In this document: positions 3,201 to 6,200 of the stretch, piece by piece
How positions within the stretch are numbered: position 1 is the stretch's first letter
Layout: each line of letters begins with the position of its first letter
Origin: Escherichia coli O157:H7
GTDB taxonomy: Bacteria > Pseudomonadota > Gammaproteobacteria > Enterobacterales > Enterobacteriaceae
Direction: 5' to 3' (one strand)
Assembly: GCF_013167455.1 (NCBI RefSeq)
Contig: NZ_CP038328.1
Length of the DNA: 64,000 nucleotides
Made by a program: the position numbers

Positions 3201-6200
3201 GGTCGGTGATTTCGACGCCGACGGTGCCACCAGCACGGCTCTAAGCGTGCTGGCGATGCGCTCGCTTGGTTGCAGCAATATCGACTACCTGGTACCAAAC
3301 CGTTTCGAAGACGGTTACGGCTTAAGCCCGGAAGTGGTCGATCAGGCCCATGCCCGTGGCGCGCAGTTAATTGTCACGGTGGATAACGGTATTTCCTCCC
3401 ATGCGGGAGTTGAGCACGCTCGCTCGTTGGGCATCCCGGTTATTGTTACCGATCACCATTTGCCGGGCGACACATTACCCGCAGCGGAAGCGATCATTAA
3501 CCCTAACTTGCGCGACTGTAATTTCCCGTCGAAATCACTGGCAGGCGTGGGTGTGGCGTTTTATCTGATGCTGGCGCTGCGCACCTTTTTGCGCGATCAG
3601 GGCTGGTTTGATGAGCGCGGCATCGCAATTCCTAACCTGGCAGAACTGCTGGATCTGGTCGCGCTGGGGACAGTGGCGGACGTCGTGCCGCTGGACGCTA
3701 ATAATCGCATTCTGACCTGGCAGGGGATGAGTCGCATCCGTGCCGGAAAGTGCCGTCCAGGGATTAAAGCGCTGCTGGAAGTGGCAAACCGTGATGCACA
3801 AAAACTCGCCGCCAGCGATTTAGGTTTTGCGCTGGGGCCACGTCTCAATGCTGCCGGGCGACTGGACGATATGTCCGTCGGTGTGGCGCTGTTGCTGTGC
3901 GACAACATCGGCGAAGCGCGCGTGCTGGCAAATGAACTCGATGCGCTAAATCAGACGCGAAAAGAGATCGAACAAGGAATGCAGATTGAAGCCTTGACCC
4001 TGTGCGAGAAACTGGAGCGAAGTCGCGACACGCTACCCGGCGGGCTGGCAATGTATCACCCCGAATGGCATCAGGGCGTTGTCGGTATTCTGGCTTCGCG
4101 CATCAAAGAGCGTTTTCACCGTCCGGTTATCGCCTTTGCGCCAGCAGGTGATGGTACGCTGAAAGGTTCCGGTCGCTCCATTCAGGGGCTGCATATGCGT
4201 GATGCGCTGGAGCGATTAGACACACTCTACCCCGGTATGATGCTGAAGTTTGGCGGTCATGCGATGGCGGCGGGTTTGTCGCTGGAAGAGGATAAATTCG
4301 AACTCTTTCAACAACGGTTTGGCGAGTTGGTTACCGAGTGGCTGGACCCTTCGCTATTGCAAGGCGAAGTGGTGTCAGACGGCCCGTTAAGCCCGGCCGA
4401 AATGACCATGGAAGTGGCGCAGCTGCTGCGCGATGCTGGCCCGTGGGGGCAGATGTTCCCGGAGCCGCTGTTTGATGGTCATTTCCGTCTGCTGCAACAG
4501 CGGCTGGTGGGCGAACGTCATTTGAAAGTCATGGTCGAACCGGTCGGCGGCGGTCCGCTGCTGGATGGTATTGCTTTTAATGTCGATACCGCCCTCTGGC
4601 CGGATAACGGCGTGCGCGAAGTGCAACTGGCTTACAAGCTCGATATCAACGAGTTTCGCGGCAACCGCAGCCTGCAAATTATCATCGACAATATCTGGCC
4701 AATTTAGCGTCATCTTCTCTATAAAAAAGAGCGTGGATTGGGTACAATCCCGCTCTTATCACCGCATTTTGACTAGCTCAATAAAAGAAATCAGACCATG
4801 TTTGAAATTAATCCGGTAAATAATCGCATTCAGGACCTCACGGAACGCTCCGACGTTCTTAGGGGGTATCTTTGACTACGACGCCAAGAAAGAGCGTCTG
4901 GAAGAAGTAAACGCCGAGCTGGAACAGCCGGATGTCTGGAACGAACCCGAACGCGCACAGGCGCTGGGTAAAGAGCGTTCCTCCCTCGAAGCCGTTGTCG
5001 ACACCCTCGACCAAATGAAACAGGGGCTGGAAGATGTTTCTGGTCTGCTGGAACTGGCTGTAGAAGCTGACGACGAAGAAACCTTTAACGAAGCCGTTGC
5101 TGAACTCGACGCCCTGGAAGAAAAACTGGCGCAGCTTGAGTTCCGCCGTATGTTCTCTGGCGAATATGACAGCGCCGACTGCTACCTCGATATTCAGGCG
5201 GGGTCTGGCGGTACGGAAGCACAGGACTGGGCGAGCATGCTTGAGCGTATGTATTTGCGCTGGGCAGAATCGCGTGGTTTCAAAACTGAAATCATCGAAG
5301 AGTCGGAAGGTGAAGTGGCGGGTATTAAATCCGTGACGATCAAAATCTCCGGCGATTACGCTTACGGCTGGCTGCGTACAGAAACTGGCGTTCACCGCCT
5401 GGTGCGTAAGAGCCCGTTTGACTCCGGCGGTCGTCGCCACACGTCGTTCAGCTCCGCGTTTGTTTATCCGGAAGTTGATGATGATATTGATATCGAAATC
5501 AACCCGGCGGATCTGCGCATTGACGTTTATCGCGCGTCCGGCGCGGGCGGTCAGCACGTTAACCGTACCGAATCTGCGGTGCGTATTACCCACATCCCGA
5601 CCGGGATCGTGACCCAGTGCCAGAACGACCGTTCCCAGCACAAGAACAAAGACCAGGCCATGAAGCAGATGAAAGCGAAGCTTTATGAACTGGAGATGCA
5701 GAAGAAAAATGCCGAGAAACAGGCGATGGAAGATAACAAATCCGACATCGGCTGGGGCAGCCAGATTCGTTCTTATGTCCTTGATGACTCCCGCATTAAA
5801 GATCTGCGCACCGGGGTTGAAACCCGCAATACGCAGGCCGTGCTGGACGGCAGCCTGGATCAATTTATCGAAGCAAGTTTGAAAGCAGGGTTATGAGGAA
5901 CCAACATGTCTGAACAACACGCACAGGGCGCTGACGCGGTAGTCGATCTTAACAATGAACTGAAAACGCGTCGTGAGAAGCTGGCGAACCTGCGTGAGCA
6001 GGGAATTGCCTTCCCGAACGATTTCCGTCGCGATCATACCTCTGACCAATTGCACGCAGAATTCGACGGTAAAGAGAACGAAGAACTTGAAGCGCTGAAC
6101 ATCGAAGTCGCCGTTGCTGGCCGCATGATGACCCGCCGTATTATGGGTAAAGCCTCTTTTGTTACCCTGCAGGACGTTGGCGGTCGTATTCAGCTGTACG

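Follow-up and report, generated by a model that had tools for sequence, protein, structure and literature searches.

The prfB locus and its reading frames

We examined a 64,000-nucleotide stretch of contig NZ_CP038328.1 from Escherichia coli O157:H7, referred to throughout as the window and numbered from its first base. Within it, RefSeq places a prfB coding sequence at 4798..5896, between recJ and lysS, that is joined from two pieces and annotated with the note ‘programmed frameshift’. The features of the locus are collected in Table 1.

From the ATG at 4798, 25 sense codons lead in frame to a TGA at 4873-4875, the position of codon 26. A sequence-only reading of the window had reported this in-frame TGA in the context AGGGGG-TAT-CTT-TGA-C, and our direct reading of 4861-4876, AGGGGGTATCTTTGAC, bears it out. 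The same reading had assigned the remainder of the gene to the +1 frame, which is indeed open from 4820 to a TGA ending at 5896 and has its first ATG, GTG or TTG no earlier than 5015. A mechanical ORF list is blind to this arrangement, as had also been pointed out: for prfB it holds only a 25-aa ORF (4798..4875) and a 293-aa ORF (5015..5896), and the full-length gene is absent.

The sequence around the break contains a complete frameshift cassette, made up of AGGGGG, a 3-nt spacer, CUU_U, UGA and then C. The hexamer CTTTGA at 4870-4875 supplies a slippery CUU_U that overlaps the stop codon, the C at 4876 lies directly 3′ of the UGA in what is a weak termination context, and the distance from AGGGGG to CUU is exactly 3 nt. 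The earlier description of the site as the classic RF2 recoding signal is apt on sequence grounds, as every element named in the literature is found here (PMC10798248; PMC12421855) and RefSeq agrees.

Table 1. Coordinates of the prfB recoding site and of the adjoining downstream gene.
Feature	Position	Strand	Basis
prfB ORF1: ATG + 25 sense codons, frame 0, RF2 residues 1-25	4798..4872	+	Sequence; aligned to 1gqe residues 1-25; RefSeq CDS start at the same base
Internal Shine-Dalgarno-like AGGGGG, 3 nt 5′ of the slippery CUU, complementary to the 16S rRNA anti-Shine-Dalgarno; putative stimulator	4861..4866	+	Sequence; stimulator role from PMC10798248, PMC12421855
Spacer codon TAT (Tyr24), 3 nt, predicted to be in the E site when the shift occurs	4867..4869	+	Sequence
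Slippery CUU_U: peptidyl-tRNA-Leu would move from CUU (4870-4872) to UUU (4871-4873), base 4873 being effectively skipped	4870..4873	+	Sequence; mechanism from PMC10798248, PMC12421855
RF2-specific UGA (codon 26) and the C after it, together (UGA-C) a weak termination context and the putative RF2-concentration sensor	4873..4876	+	Sequence; context from PMC10798248, PMC12421855
prfB ORF2, +1 frame: 340 codons (RF2 residues 26-365, Asp26 GAC first) and TGA stop	4874..5896	+	Joined translation
lysS (lysine--tRNA ligase), starting 10 nt past the prfB end; context, not part of the recoding signal	5906..7423	+	ORF list, RefSeq

The joined frames encode release factor 2

The sequence-only reading had proposed translating the two frames as one and aligning the result to RF2. 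Translation of join(4798..4872, 4874..5896) yields an uninterrupted protein of 365 aa that scores 525.9 bits against the NCBIfam prfB model TIGR00020 (cut-off 370), with the match covering residues 12-362 and spanning the junction. On the same protein the RF1 models reach 305.7 and 303.8 bits, under their respective cut-offs of 400 and 423. The PCRF domain (PF03462) is found at residues 31-219 and the RF-1 domain (PF00472) at 228-337. ORF2 also carries SPF (residues 205-207), the RF2-specific tripeptide for stop-codon recognition, and the GGQ motif of peptidyl-tRNA hydrolysis (residues 250-252).

Alignment with crystallized E. coli RF2 (1gqe_A) runs end to end, residues 1-365 on 1-365 (E = 8.1e-241), and 364 of the 365 residues are the same, the sole substitution being L298V. 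Across residues 25 and 26, where the frames meet, the joined product is continuous when aligned to 1gqe and to homologues from other species.

Conservation of the cassette

We compared the site with other E. coli genomes. The window as a whole is colinear with NZ_CP022689.1 (2985685-3049684), with 8 mismatches, and the 1401 bp from 4600 to 6000 match several E. coli O157:H7 chromosomes at 100% identity; among complete E. coli genomes, 5425 of 5426 contain them. A 40-mer centered on the cassette (4850-4889) was matched by megablast in 5420 of the 5426, identically in 4411 of these. Megablast seeds on a 28-nt exact word, and any such word within the 40-mer spans its positions 13-28; the 16 bases from 4862 to 4877 (GGGGGTATCTTTGACT) are therefore invariant in all 5420 genomes, that is, unchanged in at least 5420 of 5426. 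Two variants of the 40-mer were inspected, and both changes fall outside the cassette: one replaces G with A at 4852 (Asp19Asn), and the other, synonymous, replaces C with T at 4879.

For comparison across species, a collection of genomes from 100,044 species was scanned with the DNA pattern TAGGGGGNNNCTTTGAC. At least 120 loci matched, and the first 120 were analyzed. This sample was selected on the motif itself and so shows positional conservation, not motif frequency. Among these listed matches, 100 of 120 are prfB homologues, which by the titles of their records include members of Bacillales, Clostridia and Gemmatimonadetes as well as many gammaproteobacterial lineages; the other 20 are scattered, lack similarity to RF2 and are chance matches. 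In BLASTP comparisons with the RF2 of the window, the joined frame 0/+1 translations of the homologues align over the junction in 100 of 100 cases, 79 of them near full length, at identities to E. coli RF2 of 45-98%. In 94 of the 100 homologues among the matches listed, the slippery Leu falls at the position of E. coli RF2 residue 25. For 98 of these listed RF2 loci there was enough flanking sequence to compare the spacer, which is 3 nt long in every one and reads TAT in 45, TCT in 38 and TAC in 12. Flanking positions left unconstrained by the pattern vary across the 98 loci, with a majority base at 29-88%.

A published survey found the prfB cassette in 64% of 12,753 genomes, with the consensus AGGGGG, CTTT, TGA, C (Prince et al., 2025; PMC12421855). 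As judged by these sequence comparisons, the cassette is conserved at the homologous position both within E. coli and across phyla.

Chance does not account for the prfB site. At up to 2 mismatches its 16-mer is found a single time in the window, where 0.04 occurrences would be expected. The two strands of the 64 kb together contain 33 CTTTGA hexamers, and only one, at prfB, has an SD-like G-run at the correct spacing. It is these two counts, together with conservation across species and within E. coli, that place the site beyond chance.

Genomic context

The 9-nt gap between prfB and lysS holds no terminator-like hairpin that we could find, and 19 nt past the lysS stop, at 7442-7463 (+), there is a GC-rich hairpin with a T-run after it. 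This arrangement is consistent with co-transcription and with termination at 7442-7463, and the two genes are probably transcribed together. A simple sigma-70 scan of the recJ-prfB gap gave no convincing promoter.

Several other genes in the window are interrupted. ygfS, encoding a 4Fe-4S dicluster protein at 12067-12555 (+), is interrupted at codon 29 by an in-frame TAA (12151-12153) and is a RefSeq pseudogene with an ‘internal stop’. It lies among the selenium- and molybdenum-related genes ygfK, yqeB, yqeC and xdhD. We considered the stop as a selenocysteine codon and rejected this because it is TAA, not TGA; it has the appearance of a plain nonsense mutation. At 42149-43754 (+), RefSeq flags a glycoside hydrolase family 15 gene as ‘frameshifted’, and frame 0 of this gene ends at codon 188. 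Unlike the programmed shift in prfB, this frameshift most likely represents gene decay.

The glycoside hydrolase gene lies just 3′ of a tRNA-Gly gene (anticodon CCC; 41842-41915, +), beyond which a type III secretion gene cluster occupies 44346-64000. The cluster includes sctC, a YopN/InvE-type gatekeeper, sctV- and sctN-type genes, sctR/S/T/U-type export-apparatus genes, prgH/eprH-type genes and ygeH of the HilA family, and presumably represents the E. coli O157:H7 ETT2 island, with a tRNA gene as its insertion site. Decay is evident in several genes of the cluster: an internal stop interrupts sctT (54497-55264), and prgH/eprH (57509-58689) carries a frameshift as well as an internal stop. 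Between the decayed glycoside hydrolase gene and the cluster, a 59-aa GhoT/OrtT-family toxin gene is annotated at 43821-44000 (+).

Frameshifting weighed against other readings

A gene that is formally split over two frames, in a window that holds truly decayed genes flagged by RefSeq as ‘frameshifted’ or having an ‘internal stop’, could be taken for a pseudogene or for a sequencing or assembly error, with a 1-nt insertion (an extra T at 4873) inactivating prfB. The break, however, falls on a complete signal of SD, spacer, CUUU and UGA-C, which a random indel would not produce. At least 5420 of 5426 complete E. coli genomes share exactly this cassette, and a cassette stands at the homologous codon in at least 100 prfB homologues of other species. 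Elsewhere the gene is undamaged, its product sharing 364 of 365 residues with the crystallized protein, and RF2 is essential in E. coli, which likewise counts against inactivation. This conservation, and the intact and essentially identical protein, lead us to exclude a pseudogene or error, whose probability we consider negligible. A division into two cistrons is also highly improbable, if marginally less so. Here the first 25 codons would encode a leader peptide, and AGGGGG would serve as the ribosome-binding site for re-initiation of an internally started RF2. AGGGGG is strongly SD-like and there is a TTG at 4872-4874, but that TTG is in the wrong frame, and the +1 frame is without ATG, GTG or TTG between 4820 and 5015. 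Moreover, ORF1 residues 1-25 form part of the RF2 chain in 1gqe, which aligns over 1-365; they align with the N-termini of homologues over the junction, and the TIGR00020 match to residues 12-362 bridges it. Craigen and colleagues are said to have reported, in 1985, the junction peptide LRGYLDYDAK in RF2. Internal re-initiation is excluded because there is no +1-frame start before 5015 and because residues 1-25 belong to RF2.

The least probable of the alternatives, with a vanishingly small chance of being correct, is that the UGA is recoded in frame by stop-codon readthrough or by selenocysteine insertion. UGA is the selenocysteine codon and the UGA-C context is leaky, but past the UGA frame 0 stops after 32 codons, without RF2 similarity, and RF2 homology goes on in the +1 frame only. 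Folding of 4830-4930 gave no RNA structure beyond shuffled controls (z = -0.66), and thus no significant downstream structure such as a SECIS-like hairpin. A permissive Rfam scan of 4000-6500 likewise returned no family at the prfB site, and a scan of the whole window at gathering thresholds gave only the tRNA-Gly at 41842. We exclude this account, since frame 0 runs only briefly past the UGA and does not resemble RF2 there. We found no evidence against a programmed frameshift in prfB.

Proposed mechanism and the RF2 allele

The segment 4798-5896 (+) is almost certainly the prfB gene of an O157:H7-type E. coli, with RF2 made via the classical autoregulatory programmed +1 frameshift. Translation would start at the ATG at 4798 and, after 25 codons, pause. 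At that point the P site would contain peptidyl-tRNA-Leu on CUU (4870-4872) and the A site would present the weak stop UGA-C (4873-4876), whose C would make UGA a poor terminator. In the elongating ribosome AGGGGG (4861-4866) would pair with the anti-Shine-Dalgarno tail of the 16S rRNA, placing the P-site pairing under strain. When RF2 is abundant, the UGA would be read and a 25-residue peptide released. When it is scarce, the tRNA-Leu would slip +1 from CUU to UUU, GAC (4874-4876) would be decoded as Asp26, and the 340 codons of the +1 frame would be translated to complete the 365-aa RF2.

In this scheme our analysis supplies the anatomy of the site, shows the joined product to be continuous and identifies it, and establishes the lack of an alternative start and the conservation. 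The slippage of tRNA-Leu, the stimulation by SD-anti-SD pairing, the efficiency of about 50% and the feedback by RF2 are taken from the literature. Experiments on the identical E. coli sequence have demonstrated a high-efficiency shift and autoregulation (PMC10798248; PMC12421855); efficiency at E. coli prfB is around 50% and declines as RF2 rises, which constitutes negative feedback (PMC10798248; PMC12421855). The contribution of SD-anti-SD pairing, established for E. coli, is not universal and is dispensable in Flavobacterium (PMC10798248). We also considered a downstream stimulatory RNA structure and rejected it on the z of -0.66, in agreement with the known mechanism.

Codon 246 of RF2 is GCG (window 5533-5535), encoding Ala246, an allele that fits an O157:H7-type, non-K-12 genome. 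We take the RF2 of E. coli K-12 to carry Thr246 and to be less active, and most other E. coli to carry Ala246. A more active Ala246 RF2 acting on an identical cassette would therefore be expected to cause termination at the internal UGA more frequently and to show a lower apparent frameshift efficiency. We suggest, tentatively, that the O157:H7-type allele might set an autoregulatory set-point that differs quantitatively from that of K-12, though we regard this as rather doubtful. If true, it would be a strain-level nuance without mechanistic novelty, and published comparisons of K-12 with other RF2 alleles have largely anticipated it.

Relation to known systems

Programmed +1 frameshifting has its founding example in prfB, as does translational autoregulation by a release factor. 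The K-12 gene has the same AGGGGG-UAU-CUU-UGA-C at codons 22-26, the same division into an ORF1 of 25 and an ORF2 of 340 codons with a 365-aa product, and the same recJ-prfB-lysS neighborhood. The present gene differs from it by allele only, in a few synonymous changes and residue 246, and the recoding signal is the same. For the +1 frameshift in E. coli prfB, PMC10798248 cites Craigen et al., 1985; Craigen & Caskey, 1986; Weiss et al., 1987; and Curran & Yarus, 1988.

The cassettes of other bacterial prfB genes, as seen in at least 100 homologues, share the SD-like AGGGGG, the 3-nt spacer, CTTTGA and the following C, at about codon 24-26, and differ in the spacer codon (TAT, TCT or TAC) and in the flanking codons. 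Such cassettes of other bacteria have reportedly been described by Baranov and colleagues in 2002 and by Bekaert and colleagues in 2006. The site is absent from some lineages, among them Actinomycetota, Mycoplasmatota and Thermotogota (PMC12421855), and Flavobacterium shifts frame in prfB without use of the SD (PMC10798248).

For annotation, a gene caller or ORF track that ignores recoding will break prfB into a 25-aa ORF and an N-terminally truncated ORF of 293 aa, or call a pseudogene. Recognition of the cassette restores the correct, essential RF2 of 365 aa.

Beyond bacteria, eukaryotic antizyme (OAZ) and the yeast Ty1, EST3 and ABP140 also shift +1 at an A-site codon that is slow to decode, which in antizyme is a stop codon. 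Antizyme resembles prfB further in that the efficiency of its shift senses the level of the regulated metabolite or product. However, the antizyme and yeast shifts occur in unrelated genes and use other slippery sites and stimulators, which in antizyme are polyamines and a pseudoknot, and to our knowledge none of OAZ, Ty1, EST3 and ABP140 makes use of SD-anti-SD pairing. The site in the O157:H7-type prfB is the E. coli prfB frameshift site itself, fully known already and with nothing new to it.
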